DNA from: an uncultured bacterium
GTDB taxonomy: Bacteria; Patescibacteriota; Minisyncoccia; UBA6257; JAGGUH01
Reading direction: 5' to 3'
DNA length: 24,156 nucleotides
NCBI GenBank assembly: GCA_937877385.1
Contig: CALGBJ010000041.1
Span: forward strand, 1-24,156
This document shows positions 5,180-24,156 of this stretch, one piece after another. The notes under the pieces were generated by a model. The model did no database searches. It was not told the DNA's origin and worked only from the letters and a program-made list of their open reading frames with translations. How positions within the stretch are numbered: position 1 is the first letter of the stretch; each line of letters opens with the position of its first letter. The position numbers were made by a program, and so were the translations under genes.

Positions 5180-5256
5180 GCCAATAACTGCCAATTGCCA
5201 ATTGGCAATTGGCAGTTAGCTATTAGCTATTAGCTATTGGCTGTTGGCTATTGGCA
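5180..5256. repeat. Heptamer array (RTTRGCW x8) with inverted units forming a perfect 34-bp palindrome at 5185-5218
   Basis: attggca attggca gttagct attagct attagct attggct gttggct attggca (5201-5256); TAACTGCCAATTGCCAA|TTGGCAATTGGCAGTTA is its own reverse complement. Confidence 0.92.
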
Positions 5257-5267
5257 AATAGATATTC

Positions 5268-5329
5268 ATAGAAACTTATAGAAATTTATTGAAATTTATT
5301 GTTTTATTGTCTATTAACGAGTTAACGAG
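5268..5329. repeat. Short tandem repeats: 10-mer ATWGAAAYTT x3 and 8-mer TTAACGAG x2
   Basis: atagaaactt atagaaattt attgaaattt (5268-5297); ttaacgag ttaacgag (5314-5329). Confidence 0.75.
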
Positions 5330-5340
5330 TTTAATATTAA

Positions 5341-5386
5341 AAATTCGAATTTGGGATTTAGAATTTAGAATTTAGAATTTCAAATT
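5341..5386. repeat. Heptamer array GRATTTN x5 (reverse complement of the AAATTCY family)
   Basis: gaatttg ggattta gaattta gaattta gaatttc at 5347-5381. Confidence 0.85.
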
Positions 5387-5423
5387 AAGATATAATCGTG
5401 TCTTAATTAAAAGAAAAAGGAAA

Positions 5424-5789
5424 TTATTTTTTAATGATGAGTTTCCAATCTTGGTAGCAGTTAATTCCCTGATAAATTACTCCTAATAAAAAGCCAAGAA
5501 ATAATTCATTGTTGATAATTGGCAATTTCAAAATAACTCCTAAGATAAGAAGAAGAGTAGAGTAAAGCCAATGGTGAAGATGAATTTGCCAATTTTTTAT
5601 TTTAATAATCAGAGATTTAAAAATTTTTGGCTGTTCGCCTTCTTTTTTGCCAGCAAGGAATTTGGCAGAAAAATAACCCCAAAGTCCTCCTATTAAAAAT
5701 AAAAAATATCCGCAAGAAATCACCAAAAATAAAAAAAGGAAGATGATTTTTTTCTTAAATTTATTTTTCAAAAAATTTAAAAAATTCAT
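5424..5789 (-). CDS. Hypothetical integral membrane protein with HLHHW motif (ORF track strand label is wrong)
   Basis: Plus strand has CAT at 5787-5789 and TTA at 5424-5426, so the listed protein MNFLNFLKNK... reads on the minus strand. Three hydrophobic segments; IHLHHWLY motif. Confidence 0.8.
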   Translation of the reverse strand: MNFLNFLKNKFKKKIIFLFLFLVISCGYFLFLIGGLWGYFSAKFLAGKKEGEQPKIFKSLIIKIKNWQIHLHHWLYSTLLLILGVILKLPIINNELFLGFLLGVIYQGINCYQDWKLIIKK

Positions 5790-5810
5790 TGCTTTTTTGA
5801 AATTTCTAAA

Positions 5811-5839
5811 ATTCTAAAAGAAAAATAAAAATAAATCAA
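5811..5839 (-). promoter_or_regulatory. Putative sigma70 promoter TTGATT-N17-TAGAAT for the membrane-protein gene
   Basis: Minus-strand hexamers 5839-5834 and 5816-5811; divergent and back-to-back with the yidC promoter. Confidence 0.55.
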
Positions 5840-5850
5840 ATAGAAAAACA

Positions 5851-8031: not shown

Positions 8032-8159
8032 AAAATTACTCTTGACAGAAAAAGAAAAACATCAGAGAATAAAGCAGATTGCTGAAGAAAAACAAGTTTT
8101 TTTCTTTCTTCTGATTTATGTTGGAAGAGAGGAGTAAGGAGTGAAAAAAATAGCGGTGA

Positions 8160-8208
8160 CCCCCTCCTTGGTCCTCCCCCTCAAAGAGGGGGAGGATAAA
8201 GGTGGGGG
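8160..8208. repeat. GC-rich 49-nt hairpin (REP-like element or terminator) between pheS and rplS
   Basis: TCCTCCCCCTC-AAA-GAGGGGGAGGA is a perfect 11-bp stem, extended by CCCCCTCCTT/AAGGTGGGGG to about 23 bp with 2 mismatches and 1 G-T pair. Confidence 0.8.
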
Positions 8209-8237
8209 AGATTGAAAACAATCATAAATAATCAAAA

Positions 8238-13220: not shown

Positions 13221-13258
13221 TTTAATTAATCCTTGAATTAATTCAAGGATTAATTAAA
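13221..13258. repeat. Perfect 38-bp palindrome in a divergent intergenic region
   Basis: TTTAATTAATCCTTGAATT|AATTCAAGGATTAATTAAA, no spacer. Confidence 0.92.
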
Positions 13259-13290
13259 TTAATAATTAAATTAGTTTTGAGTTCTGAGTA

Positions 13291-14628
13291 ATGAAAATTA
13301 ATCAATTAAAAGATAAAAAGATAGCCATTGTTGGTTTTGGCCAAGAAGGGAGGTCGTTAGCCAATTTTTTGAAGAAGAAAAAAATAAAAGAAATTTTTAT
13401 TTTAGATGAAAAAAGAGAATTAAAAATCCCGGCATTTTTTAAAAAACGATTAGGAGAGAATTATTTAAGAAATTTAAGCGAATTTGATTTAATTTTTTTA
13501 AGCCCAGGAATTTCGCCAAAAAGGAGAGAGTTTGAAAGGTGTCAAGAAAAAATTTCTTCGGCTACGGAATTGTTTTTTGATAATTTTCCAGGGAAAATTA
13601 TTGGCGTTACCGGCACCAAAGGAAAAGGAACAACAGCTAGATTGATTTACCGAATTTTAAAGAAAGCCAAATCAAGAGAAAAAGTTTTTTTAGGAGGGAA
13701 TATTGGCAAACCTCTAATTTCTTTTTTAGAAAAAGCAGACAAGAAAACAATTATGATAGCTGAGCTTTCAAGTTTTCAGCTTCAAAACTTAAAAAAATCT
13801 CCTCGAATTTCCCTGCTAACAAATTTAGACAAAGACCATCTTGATTATCACTCTTCTTTGAGAGAATATCAGCAACTTAAGTTAAATATTTTTAGATTTC
13901 AAAAGAAAAAAGATTTAGCCATTGCCGATTTGTCTTTGAAGAAGAGGGTTGAAAAGATAAATCAAGCCAAAAAACTATTTTTTTCTCTTAGTAATAAAAA
14001 AAGTAATGCTTTCTTTGAAAACGGTTGGTTAAAAGTGAGGATAAAAAATAAAGAGAGAAAAATCTTGTCAGAAAAAGAAATAAAATTGCCTGGAAGACAT
14101 CTAAAAAAAGATATTTTAGGAAGCGTTCTCTTAGCTTCTTCTTTAAGAATAAAAAAAGAGGTTATTGCTAAAATAGTTAAAAGTTATCGACCAGACAAAC
14201 ATCGCTTAGAGAAATTTTTCCAAAAAGAGAAAATAATTTTCTATAACGATTCCAGCGCGACTAACCCTTTAGCTACTGTTGAAGCCATTAAAAGTTTTTC
14301 TTTGCCAATGATTTTAATTCTTGGCGGAAAGAATAAAGGGTTTGATTATCAAAAACTCTGTTCAACAATTAAGAAGAAAAATAAATTAATAAAATTAGTT
14401 ATTCTTTTTGGCGAAAATAAAGATCAACTAAAGAAGCTTTTGCCAAAAGATATTAAAAAAATCATTTTGTCTGATTTTAAAAAAATTGGTCAAGAAATCA
14501 AAAAGAATCTTTCTTTTGATAGAGGAATAGTTCTTTTCTCGCCAGCAGCTAGCAGTTTGGATTATTTTGAGAACTATCAAGAAAGAGGAAGGGTTTTTAA
14601 AGAAATAATCAGAAGGACCTTTAGTTAA
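13291..14628 (+). CDS. murD: UDP-N-acetylmuramoyl-L-alanine--D-glutamate ligase
   Basis: IAIVGFGQEG, LSPGI, IIGVTGTKGKGTT, GGNIG, ELSSFQL, DHLDYH, HRLE, YNDSSATN, ILGGKNKG, LFSPAASSLDYFENYQERG. Confidence 0.95.
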   Translation: MKINQLKDKKIAIVGFGQEGRSLANFLKKKKIKEIFILDEKRELKIPAFFKKRLGENYLRNLSEFDLIFLSPGISPKRREFERCQEKISSATELFFDNFPGKIIGVTGTKGKGTTARLIYRILKKAKSREKVFLGGNIGKPLISFLEKADKKTIMIAELSSFQLQNLKKSPRISLLTNLDKDHLDYHSSLREYQQLKLNIFRFQKKKDLAIADLSLKKRVEKINQAKKLFFSLSNKKSNAFFENGWLKVRIKNKERKILSEKEIKLPGRHLKKDILGSVLLASSLRIKKEVIAKIVKSYRPDKHRLEKFFQKEKIIFYNDSSATNPLATVEAIKSFSLPMILILGGKNKGFDYQKLCSTIKKKNKLIKLVILFGENKDQLKKLLPKDIKKIILSDFKKIGQEIKKNLSFDRGIVLFSPAASSLDYFENYQERGRVFKEIIRRTFS

Positions 14629-14958
14629 AATTACAAATTCCAAATCCCAAATTTCAAACAAATTCTAAATTCAAAATTACAAATTCTAAACAACCAAGTA
14701 AGTAGTAAAGAGTTAGAGGGTTAGGAAGCCGGTATGGAAGTTGGGTTAGGAAGTTAGAAATATAGAACAAAACGCAAATAAAAAAACAAAATAGGTAATA
14801 ACACCAACTTCCTAACCTCTTTACCAAACTGGCTTCCTAACCTTTTAACCTTAAACTTTAAACAAGAAGTTTAGAATTTAGGATCTCGAATTTAGAATTT
14901 ATTTTTGTTTGATGATCGCTAATTGCCAACTGCCAATAGCCAATTGCTAATTGCCAAA
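14628..14958. repeat. Nested inverted-repeat element built from heptamer modules
   Basis: Outer AAATYHN heptamer array 14628-14691 inverted with 14869-14912; inner GGTTAGGAAG x2 (14719-14757) inverted with CTTCCTAACC x2 (14804-14842); trailing GCYAAYW x6 (14918-14958). Confidence 0.88.
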
Positions 14959-14980
14959 GATGCACTCATCTTATACAAAG

Positions 14981-15009
14981 TTGAAATAATTTTTTAGATG
15001 ATTTAGAAT
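14981..15009 (+). promoter_or_regulatory. Putative sigma70 promoter TTGAAA-N17-TAGAAT of ftsK-argS
   Basis: Hexamers 14981-14986 and 15004-15009; ATG 8 nt after the -10 element. Confidence 0.65.
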
Positions 15010-15017
15010 TCATAAAG

Positions 15018-17189
15018 ATGCCCAATAAGAAGGAACCGCTAAAAAAAACAAAAAAAATAATTCCCGGAGGAAAAAAAGAGATTTTTTCTCTTAAGTCAGA
15101 GACCAAAAAGAGTATTGTTGGGGTTATTTTTCTTGCTTTTTCTTTGTTCTTTTTTTTAAGCGGTTTTAACTTGACTGGTTTGGTTGGTCAAAAAATAAAT
15201 CAATTTGGTCGTTTTCTTTTTGGCTGGGGTTTTTGGTTTTTCCCTTTAACTCTCTTTTTTCTTTCTTTGGTCTTTTTTCTTTCTGAAAGGATTCATCATC
15301 TTTATTTAACAACCATTCTCGGCGGTTCTTTTTTCTTCTTTTCTTTTCTTTCTTTAATTTCTTTATTTTCTCCAGGCAAAGGAGGTTTTTTTGGTGATTT
15401 AGGAGCAAAATTGGAAGGGCTTTTTGCCTTTGCTGGTAGTTTGGTTTTTTATTTGTCTTTTCTGATTATTGGTCTTTTAATGGCTTTGGATGTTCCTCTG
15501 AAATTGGCAAAGTTTTTTAAGAAAAAGAAAGAAGAAGAAGTGATTTCTTTAGATTTAGAAAAAGAAAAAGAGAAGGGAAAAAAGGAACTGTCTCAAGAAA
15601 TAAGCAAGGATAGAAAAGAGGAAGAAGAGGAAAGAGAAGAGATTGAAAAAGAGATTCTGCCTGAAAAAGAAATATCTTTGGCCGAGGAAAAGAAAATTGG
15701 TTTGAACTTTTCTTTTTCTAAAAAAAAGAAAAGCAAGACAGAAAAAATTTTTCCTCCTTTAGATATTTTTACCAGCAAAGAAGAAAAGCCGCAGTCAACT
15801 GATATTAAAGTTAGCGCCAATATTATTAGGAGAACTTTGGCTAGTTTTGGCATTAGTGTTGATTTGGCCGAAGTAGATGTTGGGCCAACTGTCACTCGTT
15901 ATTCTTTTAGACCGGCTGAAGGAACAAGATTGACGAGAATAACTGCTTTGACTAATGAAATCGCTTTATCTTTGGCAGCTCATCCTATTAGGATAGAAGC
16001 ACCTATTCCTGGAAAATCCTTGATTGGGATAGAGGTGCCAAACAAAGTTGTCTCGGTAGTTAGATTGGCTCCGCTTTTGGCTAAAGAAGAATTTAAACTT
16101 TCTCCGCCTTTAGTTTTTCCTTTGGGCAGAGACGTGACTGGTTTGCCTTTTTATGCCGATTTGAATAAAATGCCCCACCTTTTGATTGCTGGTTCGACCG
16201 GTTCAGGTAAATCAGTTTGTATTCATTGTTTGCTTTCTTCTTTGCTTTTCAAAAATACCCCCGAAGAATTATCTCTTATTTTAATTGATCCTAAAAAAGT
16301 AGAACTTAGTTTGTATGAAGGTTTGCCTCATTTAATTTCGCCAGTTATTGTTGAAGCCAAAAAAGCGATTTCGGCTTTGAATTGGCTTTGCTCAGAAATG
16401 GAGAATCGTTATGAATTACTTTTAAGAGAAAAGGTTAGAGATTTATTTGCTTATAATGAAAAGAAAAGAAAACAAGGCGAGACAGAAGAGCCATACTTGG
16501 TAGCCGTTATCGATGAATTAGCAGATTTAATGAGTAATTATCCTCGAGAAATAGAGGCTTCAATTGTTAGATTGGCTCAAATGGCTCGGGCAACTGGTAT
16601 TCATTTGGTAGTTTCTACTCAAAGACCTTCAACCGAAGTAATTACCGGTTTGATTAAAGCCAATATTACTTCAAGAATAGCTTTTCAGGTAGCTAGTCAG
16701 ATTGATTCAAGGACGATTTTAGATATGGCTGGCGCTGAGAAACTGCTTGGTCGAGGAGATATGCTTTTCCTTTCAGCCGAACTTTCCAAACCAAAAAGGA
16801 TTCAAGCACCATTTGTTTCAGTCAAAGAGATTAAAAAATTAGTTGCTTTTTGGCAAGAAGAATACAAAGGGCAAGAAGAGGTACCGGCCGGCTCTTTAAG
16901 TGAAGGGTTAGAAGAAAGTTTGACTAAAGAAAAAATTTCTTTTGATGATTTTGCTCCGGCTGATGATGATGAGCTTTACCAGGAGGCCTATCAGATAATT
17001 GTTCAAACTGGTAAGGCCTCAGCTTCTTTGTTGCAGAGAAAATTGAGAATTGGCTATGCTCGAGCAGCTCGTCTTCTTGATCTTTTAGAAGAAAGGGGAG
17101 TGGTTGGTCCAGCCAGAGGAGCTAAGCCAAGAGAGGTTTTGGTTTCCAAAGAAGAAAACTCGCCAACTGATGACTTTAATAATTTTTAA
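15018..17189 (+). CDS. ftsK: DNA translocase FtsK/SpoIIIE
   Basis: N-terminal TM domain, GPTVTRY, RIEAPIPGKSLIGIEVPN, MPHLLIAGSTGSGKS, IDPKKVEL, IDELADLM, STQRPS, GAEKLLGRGDML, gamma domain SASLLQRKLRIGYARAARLLD. Confidence 0.98.
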   Translation: MPNKKEPLKKTKKIIPGGKKEIFSLKSETKKSIVGVIFLAFSLFFFLSGFNLTGLVGQKINQFGRFLFGWGFWFFPLTLFFLSLVFFLSERIHHLYLTTILGGSFFFFSFLSLISLFSPGKGGFFGDLGAKLEGLFAFAGSLVFYLSFLIIGLLMALDVPLKLAKFFKKKKEEEVISLDLEKEKEKGKKELSQEISKDRKEEEEEREEIEKEILPEKEISLAEEKKIGLNFSFSKKKKSKTEKIFPPLDIFTSKEEKPQSTDIKVSANIIRRTLASFGISVDLAEVDVGPTVTRYSFRPAEGTRLTRITALTNEIALSLAAHPIRIEAPIPGKSLIGIEVPNKVVSVVRLAPLLAKEEFKLSPPLVFPLGRDVTGLPFYADLNKMPHLLIAGSTGSGKSVCIHCLLSSLLFKNTPEELSLILIDPKKVELSLYEGLPHLISPVIVEAKKAISALNWLCSEMENRYELLLREKVRDLFAYNEKKRKQGETEEPYLVAVIDELADLMSNYPREIEASIVRLAQMARATGIHLVVSTQRPSTEVITGLIKANITSRIAFQVASQIDSRTILDMAGAEKLLGRGDMLFLSAELSKPKRIQAPFVSVKEIKKLVAFWQEEYKGQEEVPAGSLSEGLEESLTKEKISFDDFAPADDDELYQEAYQIIVQTGKASASLLQRKLRIGYARAARLLDLLEERGVVGPARGAKPREVLVSKEENSPTDDFNNF

Positions 17190-18821: not shown

Positions 18822-21800
18822 ATGACTAAAAGATTATTTAGCAAAATTATTAAAAGAGATGGCCGAAAAGTTAAATTTGAGAGCGAGAAAATAATCCAGG
18901 CCATTGAAAAAGCCGGTCAAGCCACTGGTGAATTTGGTAGAGAAGTAGCTGAAAAGCTAACAGCCAAAGTTCTTCTTTTAGCCAAGGAGGTTCTTAAAGA
19001 CAAGAAAACGCCAACAGTAGAAGAAATTCAAGATATTGTTGAGTTGGTTCTTTTTAATTCTCCTTTTTGGAAAACAGCTAGGGCTTATGCTATTTATCGA
19101 GAACAGCATCGTCAATTAAGAGAGATTGTTAGTCAAGCTGATGTTAGTTTAGTTGATAAATACTTAGAAAAAGTTACTTGGGAGATTAGAGAGAATTCCA
19201 ATATGACCTTTTCTCTTCAGGGTTTGAATAATTATGTCTCTTCAAAAATTATTTCTACTTATTGGCTTAATAAAATTTATCCAGAGGAAATTAGAAGGGC
19301 TCATGAAGAAGGAGATTTTCATCTCCACGATCTTTCTAATCTTTCAGTTTACTGTGTTGGCTGGGACTTGTATGACTTGCTTTTGAAAGGGTTTGGGGGC
19401 GTGCCAGGCAAAATTGAATCAAAGCCGGCCAAACATTTTCATTCGGCCTTAGGTCAATTAGTTAACTTTCTTTATTCACTCCAAGGAGAGACAGCTGGGG
19501 CAGTGGCTGTTTCTAATTTTGATACTTTGTTGGCGCCGTTTATTTACTATGACAAACTTTCTTATCGAGAAGTTTCCCAAGCTCTTCAAGAATTTCTTTT
19601 CAATATGAATGTGCCAACAAGAGTTGGTTTTCAGACGCCTTTTTCTAATATAACTTTAGATTTGACGCCTCCGCCACAACTGGCTAATTCGCCAGTTTTA
19701 ATTGGCGGTAAACTTCAAGATAAAACTTATAAAGAGTTTCAAAAAGAAATAGATATTTTTAACAAAGCCCTTTTAGAAAATTTCTTGGAAGGAGATGGCA
19801 AAGGTAGAGTTTTTTCTTTTCCTATTCCAACTTACAATATTACTAAGGATTTTGATTGGGGCAATAAAAATCTTGATCTTCTTTGGCGAGTGACAGCCAA
19901 ATATGGCTTGCCTTATTTCGCTAATTTCATCAATTCAGATATGAAACCAGAAGATATTAGGAGTATGTGTCTTTATCCTGAGGAGGAAGTTTTGATTAGA
20001 AATAATCGAAAAGTAAAAAGAAGGAAAATTGGCGAGATAGTTGAGAATTATAGGGGATCAGAATTTGATAGGGATGGTTGGAGTGATTGTCGGCCCGAAA
20101 AAAATTTGGAGGTGCTTTCTTTAAATTATCAAACAGGAAGAACAGAGTGGGCTAAGGTGATTAGATTTTTGAAAGTAAAAGACAACAAACTAGTGACTAT
20201 TTTTACTAATGAAGGTAAAAGAATAAAAGTTTCCAGCAAGCATCTTGTGCCGGTTTTAACTCCAGAAGGTTTGATAAATAAATTTGCTGAAGATGTTAAA
20301 GAGGGAGATTATTTGTTAGGACTAAAGAAATCTTCTAGTCTAAATGATGATGGCGAGTACCAGAAATTAAATGATAAATTAGTTTTGAATGAGGACTTAG
20401 CAAAGATTTTAGGTTATTTCACAGCCGATGGCAATTATTTATTTGAAACAAGAAAAAATCTTAAAACATTTGGTTTGCCTAGAGGTTTGCAATTTACTTT
20501 TAATTCTGAAACCAAAGAAAATGTTGAGGAAATTAAAAGTTTGATTAAAAAAGTTTTCGATTTAGAGGTTAAAGAAAGGAAAGATCCTCGTTATCATTCT
20601 TATTATCTTTATCTTTATAAAGCAGATTTGGCAAGGATTTTATGGCAGGCCGGTTTTAGGAAATATGGCCGTTTGCCTGATATTTTATTTAATTCTCCTT
20701 TAAAAGTTATAGAAAGTTTTCTCCTTTATCATTTTAAGGGAGATGGTTATTTAAAAAGAAAAGAAATTCATATTAATGACAAAGAGTTAGCCAGAGATTT
20801 AGTTCTTCTTTACTCTTTAATAGGCAAGCCAGTTACTTATCGGCAAAGGAGAAGTAGTCAAATTATTTATCTTCAGCATAGTTGTAAAGAGAGAGACAAA
20901 GATTCTAACTTTTTGTTATCTCAAACGCTATCCCAAAGAGTGCCTGGCTTTTTGGCTAAATCTACTTATTTAGTGCCAGGGCTTAGAAAATCAAGAATGG
21001 TTGGTCTTGAGACATTAAGGAAATATAGGGCTGTAACTCAATTAAGTCGAAGAATTGAAGATAGTGATTATTATATTAGCCGAGTAAAGAAAGTTGAAGT
21101 GAAAAATCTTTCCTATCCTCAGACATTTTTTGATTTAGAACTTGATAAGAATCATCTTTTTGTTCATTCTTTGGGAACAATTACTCATAATTGTTGCCGG
21201 TTGAGGATTGACAACCGCAAACTCGAGAAGCGAGGCGGTGGTCTTTTTGGTTCAAGCCCGTTGACTGGCTGTTATGACGAAAAGACAGAGATTTTAACTG
21301 AAGATGGTTGGAAATTGTTTAAAGATTTAAAGATGGAAGACAAGGTATTTACTTTAAGTGAGAATAATCGAATTGAACTTCATCAACCAGAACAACTTTT
21401 CAATTATGACTACGAAGGCGAAATGATTGAATTTAAAGCAAAATCTCTTGATTTACTAGTTACTCCTAATCACCGAATGGTTGTTGACAAAAAGTACAAG
21501 AAGAGAAGAACTTTTGTTGAAGCAAAGGACTTTAGTCCTTCTCGAGACCTTATTCCTAAAAAAGGAATATGGTTAGGTAAGAGGCAAGAATATTTTGAAC
21601 TTCCTCCAGTAGTTATACTTCAGGGGAGCGGATCACCTTCTCGTTTCTCTGATCAAGAGATAGGGTATATTCGGGAGATGAGAAGAAAAGGAAAAAGCTT
21701 TTATCAAATAGGAAAAGTGTTCAATTGTAATCCGGTAACCATTTACAATATTTGTCTTAATGAAAATTATGGTAACAGACAGAGGATAAGGATAAGATAT

Positions 21801-24022: not shown

Positions 24023-24156
24023 AAAATCCAAATGTAAGTGTAAAACTCAAAGTGCAAAGTGTAAAACCCAATTTGAAATCCCAAATCCTAAATTCGAAAT
24101 TCTAAACGAAATTCTAAATCCCAAATTCCAAATCCCAAATGTTTAGAATTTGTGAT
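24023..24156. repeat. Heptamer array (AAAGTGY module, then AAATYCN x4-AAACG-AAATYCY x4) with the start of an inverted arm; runs off the window
   Basis: aaatccc aaatcct aaattcg aaattct aaacg aaattct aaatccc aaattcc aaatccc aaat (24076-24140), then gtttagaattt (24141-24151). Confidence 0.85.

Follow-up and report, generated by a model that had tools for sequence, protein, structure and literature searches.

Several bacteria, Coxiella and Leptospira among them, carry intervening sequences (IVSs) in their rRNA genes that harbor an open reading frame (ORF) of the S23p/IVP type. In Rickettsia, selfish palindromic repeats known as Rickettsia palindromic elements (RPEs, listed in PMC3184786) lie between genes and also in frame inside genes. 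The small dispersed repeats (SDRs) of Nostoc punctiforme (Elhai et al. 2008, Genome Res 18:1484, as cited in PMC3116915) reportedly consist of very small hairpin units lodged inside each other and inside heptamer arrays, and no enzyme is known for them. Tandem heptamers in inverted arrangement have been described in Xanthomonas, where 70–75 convergent pairs of GGGAATC arrays are able to form stem-loops, and the GGGGAYT arrays of Nostoc, which are short tandemly repeated repetitive (STRR) sequences, were treated alongside them (Rehm et al. 2015, PMC4692102). The literature on repetitive extragenic palindromic (REP) sequences and their hairpin-forming doublets (REPINs) offers a further comparison (PMC3116915, PMC3733652). 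Here, we analyze a nested inverted repeat located between murD and ftsK in an uncultured member of the Patescibacteriota. The window, meaning the whole stretch that was analyzed, is the 24,156-nt contig CALGBJ010000041.1, which is contig C41 of the assembly.

Like the arrays of Xanthomonas and Nostoc, the repeats described here are made of tandem 7-nt units, are mostly intergenic and lie close behind the upstream ORF. They differ from those arrays in unit sequence, in the AAAC that follows every four units, and in their nested cargo and IVP genes, neither of which was reported for the published loci; moreover, the published loci were described as rather conserved, whereas those studied here are highly variable (PMC4692102). 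The fixed punctuation of four units plus AAAC, together with the nested cargo, also places them outside the class of simple heptamer repeats (simple sequence repeats, SSRs, or STRRs). The preliminary description of this DNA, made from its letters, had named the heptameric STRRs as an analog in periodicity. The tandem 7-nt units agree with this, but the GGGAATC arrays of Xanthomonas (PMC4692102) and the ORF-bearing rRNA IVSs are closer analogs. We found that the murD–ftsK structure is one copy of a modular repeat system of a ~0.5-Mb Parcubacteria-type genome. With a probability of about 0.6, we consider that this system consists of nested, gene-less, non-autonomous, IVS-like hairpin interspersed repeats that are selfish or nearly neutral.

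The assembly comprises 502,611 bases in 133 contigs, with 32.5% GC, and the sequencing runs in which the DNA of the window is found are hydrothermal-vent metagenomes. The names attached to homologs of its MurD indicate a Parcubacteria/Patescibacteria organism. In what follows, C numbers designate contigs of this genome (G000), other G numbers designate other genomes, and L numbers designate extracted loci. The completeness of the genome, 93.6%, sets the scope of every negative result on gene families.

Both murD (13291–14628) and ftsK (15018–17189) have Pfam support, and the spacer between them, of 389 nt, contains the features listed in Table 1. The inverted repeat lies where it had originally been placed, and the complementarity of its arms over 11 nt and the interval of 177 nt between them were also reproduced: AAATTCTAAAC (14681–14691) is the exact reverse complement of GTTTAGAATTT (14869–14879). 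The inner palindrome, a member of the GGTTAGGAAG family, is placed exactly at the outer AAAC/GTTT dyad, and its loop, for which 46 nt had been given, measures 50 nt between the aligned arms. According to the repeat finder, the outer arms (14656–14691 and 14869–14904) are 36 nt long and 83% complementary, and the inner arms are 44 nt long and 80% complementary; a hand count gave a unit-level likeness of ~81% between the left and right end blocks of the outer element. Tandem Repeats Finder (TRF) called a period of 7 at 14628–14690, 14865–14901, 14921–14957 and 24076–24140. The outer palindrome is lopsided, with two 32-nt units on the left and one on the right, where it continues as an array of AATTGCC heptamers; three of the four genome copies of the small terminal module directly follow an array of this type (C41, C78, C87). 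A second copy of the outer element at the end of the window had been described as empty. Its two left units do abut two right units, but the copy at 24076–24156 is itself incomplete because of the contig end; the missing part is supplied by contig C21 (77-nt overlap) and by strain L030, and in both the junction reads AAAT/GTTT.

The expectation that these modules are multi-copy families was borne out by a census of the genome. The 32-nt unit (4 x AAATYNN + AAAC) gave 46 matches, 23 forward and 23 reverse, versus 0 for the reversed-pattern control. Identical 32-nt blocks are present at no fewer than 8 loci, that is, at least 8, and a simple genome scan returned 53 loci with at least three AAATNNN units. 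The kit to which this unit belongs includes the heptamer families AAATYNN, AATTGCC, AAATCTA, AAAGYGC and GAATCAT, 8- and 10-nt repeats, an abundant C-rich/G-rich hairpin, GC-rich hairpin doublets of ~52 nt, the GGTTAGGAAG palindrome and a 33-nt hairpin, and its modules recur in a partly fixed order. The C-rich/G-rich hairpin (TCCTCCCCCTCCC...GGGAGGGGGAGGA), which contains a Shine-Dalgarno-like AGGAGG, has dozens of copies and is among the most abundant hairpin families of the genome. In a self-comparison, ~45% of the non-coding bases recurred elsewhere in the genome, compared with 6% of the coding bases. Repeats are held by 33 of 277 tandem gaps, 10 of 28 divergent gaps and 3 of 30 convergent gaps.

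These counts bear on the possibility that the structure originated in place, through heptamer slippage and local inverted duplication, nothing having ever been mobile. In its favor, the arrays vary by whole 7-nt units between strains, and heptamer SSRs are over-represented in some bacteria (PMC4692102). However, the exact 32-nt punctuation is found at all 46 places of this genome and in many phyla, and identical blocks are shared by separate loci. The small hairpins and the inner element turn up again in settings that have nothing in common, and neither arm of a palindrome looks like a recently made mirror image of the other. An origin in place is therefore largely refuted by the copy census, and we regard it as highly improbable.

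The outer element was found both empty and filled, as had been proposed. Its arms abut in C104, C19 and C21, and enclose a short center in C103; elsewhere, the palindrome is filled with four GC hairpins (twice in C77, and in C80), with the C-rich hairpin (C24) or with the GGTTAGGAAG element (C41, C59). The inner elements of C41 and C59, which are ~90% alike by eye, both begin immediately after AAAC. The inner module also occurs apart from the outer one, in support of the preliminary interpretation: at C7, it has heptamer arms that are at most vestigial, and the 33-nt hairpin is lodged in one of its own arms. In C12, C88, C91, C97 and C131, only half of this module is present. In all, nesting is three levels deep (heptamer palindrome, GGTTAGGAAG element, 33-nt hairpin).

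Comparison of orthologous murD–ftsK gaps revealed the filled and empty alleles that the preliminary description had anticipated. Contigs from other samples that encode an identical MurD have an identical spacer, save for one homopolymer length change. In L026 (MurD 97% identical), L143 and L144, the spacer is only 40 nt long; the whole 349-nt complex is gone, yet murD keeps its stop codon and ftsK its promoter-like site, both intact. The variable unit at this gap is thus the entire complex, and not the inner element alone as first supposed. The empty L143 and the filled L145 are 99.6% identical in murD and 99.8% identical in ftsK plus argS. The second filled allele (L145–L147) differs from that of the window by 16 substitutions, leaving 326 identical positions among the 342 aligned, by one whole heptamer and by two extra bases at the right junction. 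In trees of the flanking genes, the empty alleles share one clade with the filled L145, and the other clade is all filled; given this grouping and the near-identical flanks, the polymorphism is real and recent. Two relatives whose MurD is 52–57% identical have another gene order, and hence no orthologous gap.

The strain represented by L030, which is ~92.6% identical, lacks 1750 nt comprising murD and the complex together, with the same right border. The missing segment (13231–14980) starts a short distance upstream of murD and stops where the repeat complex stops, so that murD looks cassette-like; its left border begins with a 36-nt perfect palindrome (13231–13266), and AAAGAT is present at both borders.

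Table 1. Coordinates, within the window, of the modules of the murD–ftsK spacer and of other repeat copies
Feature	Position	Strand	Remarks
murD stop codon	14626–14628	+	First heptamer begins at the last base of the stop
Outer left unit 1: four AAATYNN heptamers + AAAC, 32 nt	14628–14659	+	Right-side partner absent
Outer left unit 2: four heptamers + AAAC	14660–14691	+	Pairing partner 14869–14904
Inner palindromic element, GGTTAGGAAG family, 177 nt	14692–14868		Arms 14712–14755 and 14806–14849; 50-nt A-rich loop
Outer right unit: GTTT + four NNNATTT heptamers	14869–14904		Mirror of left unit
Second heptamer family, AATTGCC array	14918–14957		Shorter by one 7-nt unit in strain L145
Terminal module, small inverted repeat AAGATG-CACT-CATCTT	14951–14981	+	4 genome copies
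Present/absent segment, 349 nt	14633–14981		Borders ...GTTAAAATT / ... / TGAAAT...
ftsK promoter-like site TTGAAA-17-TAGAAT, 10/12	14981–15009	+	Outside the variable segment; its start is the right border of the segment
Second outer-element copy, empty apex: two left units + start of right arm	24076–24156		Cut by the contig end
Kit mosaic: AATTGCC palindrome, modules of 10-mers and of 8-mers, a single heptamer block of the right type	5184–5390		Strain-variable
C-rich/G-rich hairpin copy	8159–8210		Inside a 137–142-nt segment missing from 9 related contigs

Every other repeat-bearing gap of the window also differs between strains, and all the large structural differences between the window and the ~92% identical strain are located at repeat-bearing gaps, an intein excepted. 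This intein (19971–21191, 1221 nt), one of two in nrdD, is absent in L030, where NrdD has 1095 aa compared with 1503 aa in the window. The nrdG–trbC gap has three unrelated fillings across strains: an empty heptamer palindrome in the present genome and in L030, a wholly different mosaic of 372 nt in L029, despite 99.7% identity with the window across 19 kb, and a fill of 709 nt including a 152-aa ORF in L031. In this last strain, the stretch L031:10864–11464 carries the 152-aa ORF together with a 51-aa ORF, both missing in the other strains. The pheS–rplS gap has a length of 206 nt in the window, where it contains a C-rich hairpin, but only 63 nt in each of nine contigs and 119 nt in another. 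A segment of 137–142 nt in the rplS leader (8071–8207) ends in this C-rich/G-rich hairpin; it is absent in nine related contigs, and one contig has an intermediate allele. In the LemA–yidC region, the strain difference consists of a SpoIIM-like gene and of which palindrome half remains. When positions 5344–5843 of the window are compared with L158:2170–2251, this gene, of 121 aa, is present in the window and in L160, and missing in L158. The window retains a right-type heptamer block; what L158 retains is a block of the left type together with one GC hairpin. The pattern looks as though separate deletions had begun at the tip of one palindrome.

This turnover could also be explained if the repeats were mainly recombination substrates, that is, if their shared modules let homologous recombination, for instance after DNA uptake, swap intergenic cassettes along with neighboring genes, with no element-specific transposition. 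Comparable systems would be the intergenic mosaic elements known in Neisseria and the minimal mobile elements. Consistent with this explanation, the differences in gene content adjoin repeats (the 1750 nt of murD plus complex, the SpoIIM-like gene, the 152-aa ORF), the nrdG–trbC fill has been fully replaced despite a flank identity of 99.7%, the trees intermix filled alleles with empty ones, and the 349-nt complex is identical between the window and L031 (349/349), whose flanks differ by 2–3%. However, this last identity is not clearly special, because tracts of 300–460 nt free of single-nucleotide polymorphisms (SNPs) also occur in the coding region of ftsK. In addition, recombination leaves unexplained the punctuated unit in GC-rich genomes of other phyla, in coding sequences and in rRNA, as well as clean small insertions with 3-nt border repeats. 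As a complete account of the system, it seems unlikely to us.

When the region 14620–14915 was folded as RNA, the + strand reached −86 kcal/mol, with a z score of −10.0, and the − strand −96.1 kcal/mol, with a z score of −11.0. None of 200 shuffles folded as well on either strand; the structure thus folds far better than its shuffled controls, in line with what had been predicted. A stable fold of this kind, on both strands, would fit a functional RNA signal under selection, such as a terminator, an insulator or an RNase III site that separates the murD transcript from a self-promoted ftsK. Other observations also agree with this idea. The element begins on the stop codon of murD, and its end coincides exactly with the −35 box in the promoter-like site of ftsK, which is a good one. 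All seven strain substitutions inside heptamer blocks fall at unit positions 5–7, leaving the AAAT and the AAAC/GTTT punctuation untouched (by our own calculation, the probability of such a distribution is ~0.003 if all seven positions are equally prone to substitution). Strains that share ~92.6% identity overall reach 97% in the heptamer palindrome that follows nrdG, and a gene for RNase III is present in the genome.

On the other side, the element is dispensable, since strains with 99.6–99.8% identity in the flanks have only 40 nt between the two genes and yet retain an intact stop codon and promoter. Of the 28 divergent gaps, in which transcripts do not end, 10 carry repeats as well, the nrdG–trbC fill is interchangeable, and family members lie within coding sequences and rRNA of other genomes. 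Between 14550 and 15050 there are 0 terminator-like sites, that is, no GC-rich stem followed by a U run. The arms of the same locus are complementary at 24.5 of 32 positions, compared with 25.8 of 32 for arms of different loci, and the G-U-compatible mismatches (23 versus 36) show no strand bias when G-U is compared with A-C. By these results, complementarity is a property of the family that is not tuned per copy, and no single transcribed strand is singled out; both arm co-evolution and a strand-specific excess of G-U were accordingly rejected. An RNA signal as the main explanation is thus improbable in our judgment, though this explanation and the one based on recombination may hold in part alongside the interpretation of the repeats as non-autonomous hairpin elements. 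An outward promoter within the terminal module was also considered and dropped; the best promoter-like site falls outside the variable segment. Over the whole window, nothing reached the gathering score in Rfam and no tRNAs were found.

The family extends beyond this genome. Of 61 genomes in this order, 12 contain the 32-nt unit; they belong to several families, whose MurD proteins are only 33–49% identical to that of the window. The double unit is present at more than 110 loci, a lower bound, in many phyla, its hosts including many classes of Patescibacteria, Acidobacteriota, Aminicenantes, Omnitrophota, Planctomycetota, Desulfobacterales, Gammaproteobacteria and others. The double units form AT-rich islands in loci of 55–61% GC (e.g., L042, L085, L104), and one Acidobacteria locus has a complete two-plus-two palindrome. 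By our own reading of the genes, heptamer units lie in frame within trmD-, glyA- and UvrD-like genes of other genomes (L013, L017, L038). Nested heptamer hairpins were also located within a putative 23S rRNA gene of the relative G050 (L022), which we recognized by its conserved motifs.

Genes at the apex of the hairpins were found both in the present genome and in relatives, which supports the suggestion that IVP genes might be located there. The family 23S_rRNA_IVP (PF05635) is represented at three loci of the genome. One of them is at the tip of an AAATCTA palindrome (C33), and another, on C123, lies between heptamer arms of the AATTGGC/GCTAAAA type inside the putative 5′ region of a 16S rRNA gene; C123:1–281 matches bacterial small-subunit (SSU) rRNA in Rfam (E 1.4e-8). 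An IVP protein is also encoded on C68. On the minus strand, C123:1–760 (L169) corresponds to the putative 5′ part of this gene with an insertion of ~400 nt in the first variable helix, the 16S 5′ end beyond the insertion being our own reading. The insertion holds a 122-aa IVP ORF between the heptamer arms, with the last codons and the stop within the right arm. The AATTGCC array of the murD–ftsK spacer resembles, also by our own reading, the heptamer type that flanks this IVP gene.

Within the order, 44 of 61 genomes have the IVP family, compared with 1 of 14 control genomes. Inverted arrays of period 7 accompany 8–9 of 11 IVP loci of relatives, at 14–50 nt from the ORF ends, and the outer arm of the window matches the arms around IVP in L175 and L180. 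Within a small sample, the IVPs of L175, L176 and L177, which have arms of GGAAT type, resemble one another, as do those of L180 and L182, which have arms of AGRATWT type. The window copy has no ORF, and is located between protein genes and outside any rRNA helix. Considering that IVP loci have heptamer arms and that the window arm matches those of L175 and L180, the outer element represents an ORF-less form of an IVS-type cassette. Genomes with and without the strict AAATYNN unit carry IVP in 12 of 12 and 32 of 49 cases, respectively (p ~0.01, hand calculation), a comparison that ignores relatedness and concerns one heptamer family, so we do not lean on it. Reverse transcriptase (PF00078) was not found in the genome search, and the IVP genes are therefore not accessory genes of diversity-generating retroelements. 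In L175, L177, L180 and L182 (G021, G051, G003 and G053), the IVP frame is open through the downstream heptamer arm, to 260–430 aa, and elsewhere in G021 an IVP-type frame is open for up to 715 aa. Because the frame is open through the arm, some cassettes of IVP plus arms may be in frame inside larger genes.

The description of these elements as a non-autonomous, nestable hairpin family is supported by the many copies, the nesting and the filled and empty alleles, and our interpretation also draws on the strong nested folding of both strands, the restriction of strain substitutions to the variable unit positions, the wide distribution of the double unit, the IVP association and the RNase III gene; the direction of insertion is the part of it that the trees do not show, as they fit loss or allelic replacement at murD–ftsK as well as insertion. 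Several other results also weigh against the interpretation that we favor. Insertions are not confined to tips: the ~52-nt GC-hairpin doublets lie inside arms, one of them within a TAGATTT array in L029 and another, in opposite orientation, in C129, so insertion at the apex, as in the preliminary description, is not a rule. The border repeats are short and inconsistent. Only TT is common to both sides of the 349-nt segment (ATT in the L145 allele), the GC doublets show a repeated TTA/TAA when, by our own reading, L029 and C129 are set against copies that lack the doublet, and the complex of C46/L031 may be bordered by an imperfect 8-mer. There is no sign of selection on the pairing of a given copy. 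Among 2.9 million viral contigs, 0 double units and 8 single units were detected. Finally, Y1_Tnp/RAYT (PF01797; RAYT, REP-associated tyrosine transposase), DDE_3 (PF13358), DDE_Tnp_1 (PF01609) and TnpB (PF07282) were not found in the genome, the control search for RAYT being positive in 6 of 14 genomes, and the only insertion sequence (IS) found, an IS3-family element on C70, has ends unrelated to the repeats. The statement that no transposase lies near the murD–ftsK structure was thus confirmed.

Other observations were made on the contigs that carry these repeats or were inspected for mobile elements. The entire 1359-nt contig C70 (L032) is the IS3-family IS, with orfA, a frameshift, an rve-type orfB and TG...CA ends. 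The multi-copy coding repeats of C5 and C93 (L148, L149) were rejected as transposases; they are five paralogs with a GXGXG motif, ~80% alike, that have heptamer arrays between them and adjoin AAA_5, AAA_14/DUF4143 and VWA-like genes. On C113 (40–337), beside a cluster of C-rich hairpins, there is a CRISPR-like array, with unique spacers and a repeat of ~30 nt beginning GTTCCAATAGTCCCAGAGTGGGATTGAAAT.

A mechanism compatible with non-autonomous hairpin elements can be outlined. Folded back on itself as RNA or single-stranded DNA, an element would do no more than lengthen a helix in the transcript, rRNA or spacer that contains it, and the elements would be tolerated because they fold back in this way. 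RNase III may trim the extended helix, so that the hairpins would be processed as RNA. The hairpin tip would be the sole place where extra DNA could lodge without breaking the helix, and secondary insertions would therefore survive there, giving rise to the Russian-doll arrangement. Whole complexes would be quickly gained, lost and swapped between strains, recombination included, and arrays would slip by whole 7-nt units. If the elements move, they probably do so as units, and, judging by the genes found with them, no candidate partner for this movement recurs other than the IVP protein. A broader proposal, which is possible but which we hold as doubtful, is that heptamer-armed hairpins constitute a domain-wide class of mobile cassettes whose only dedicated gene is IVP. 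The rRNA IVSs, the in-frame insertions in essential genes and the intergenic palindromes, whether empty or filled with repeats, would then represent various habitats and decay stages of one element, which would spread without a classical transposase, for example by insertion at single-stranded tips or at AT-rich heptamer words, helped by IVP and host enzymes.

Streamlined genomes of ~0.5 Mb are usually held to be nearly free of selfish DNA, but in this one almost half of the non-coding DNA consists of nested hairpin repeats, and turnover of the kit outpaces the accumulation of point mutations. The system ties together, in one genome, bacterial heptamer repeats, rRNA IVSs and the widespread IVP/S23p family. 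If IVP acts on heptamer hairpins, the origin and mobility of rRNA IVSs, a question dating from the 1990s, would become testable. On the practical side, the repeats break assemblies and create spurious ORFs and in-frame extensions; many contig ends of the present metagenome-assembled genome (MAG) fall within repeats.

With respect to other described systems, the bacterial interspersed mosaic elements (BIMEs) of E. coli and the Neisseria intergenic mosaic elements (NIMEs) share with the present family a small vocabulary of motifs, palindromic and other, in recurring order, variability between strains, and inverted GC-rich hairpin doublets. They differ in that there is no sequence likeness, and in that here heptamers in tandem make up the arms, many phyla contain the family and no RAYT was found. 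The GC-hairpin doublets of ~52 nt that resemble REPs or REPINs (C77, C80, C129, L029) represent an accessory module and neither of the two nested elements; no GTAG/CGTC tag was seen by eye in the listed hairpins of the genome, although no formal test was made. RPEs are restricted to one genus and lack heptamers, and the in-frame copies of the present family were seen only in other genomes. The SDRs of N. punctiforme are cyanobacterial and have other sequences. Miniature transposable elements with inverted repeats (MITEs) such as Correia (PMC10969869) are likewise non-autonomous, have inverted ends, measure 100–400 nt and vary in presence between strains; here, however, no parent IS with matching ends and no consistent target duplication were found. 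TCTAAAC and GTTTAGA do not fit, by eye, the RYYYAAC/GTTRRRY core of integron attC sites, IntI not having been searched for.

The rRNA IVSs share with this family the long stem-loop, the optional ORF for a four-helix-bundle protein at the tip, the sporadic occurrence and the lack of a transposase. The likeness extends to rRNA itself, as there is a cassette in the putative 16S rRNA gene of this genome and heptamer hairpins in the putative 23S rRNA of a relative. The window copy differs from them in its position between protein genes, in having no ORF and in carrying another repeat at its tip, and arms of punctuated 7-nt units are, to our knowledge, not part of any published description of rRNA IVSs. 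We found no paper describing a punctuated heptamer hairpin family, and to this extent the suggestion that this is an undescribed system holds, although it is better viewed as a variant of the known palindromic interspersed repeats and rRNA IVSs. What is new in relation to them is the strain-resolved presence and absence at one locus, the wholesale replacement of a fill at 99.7% identity, the nesting over three levels, and the occurrence, side by side in a single small genome, of hairpins that are empty, filled with repeats or filled with IVP, one of which lies in a putative 16S rRNA gene.

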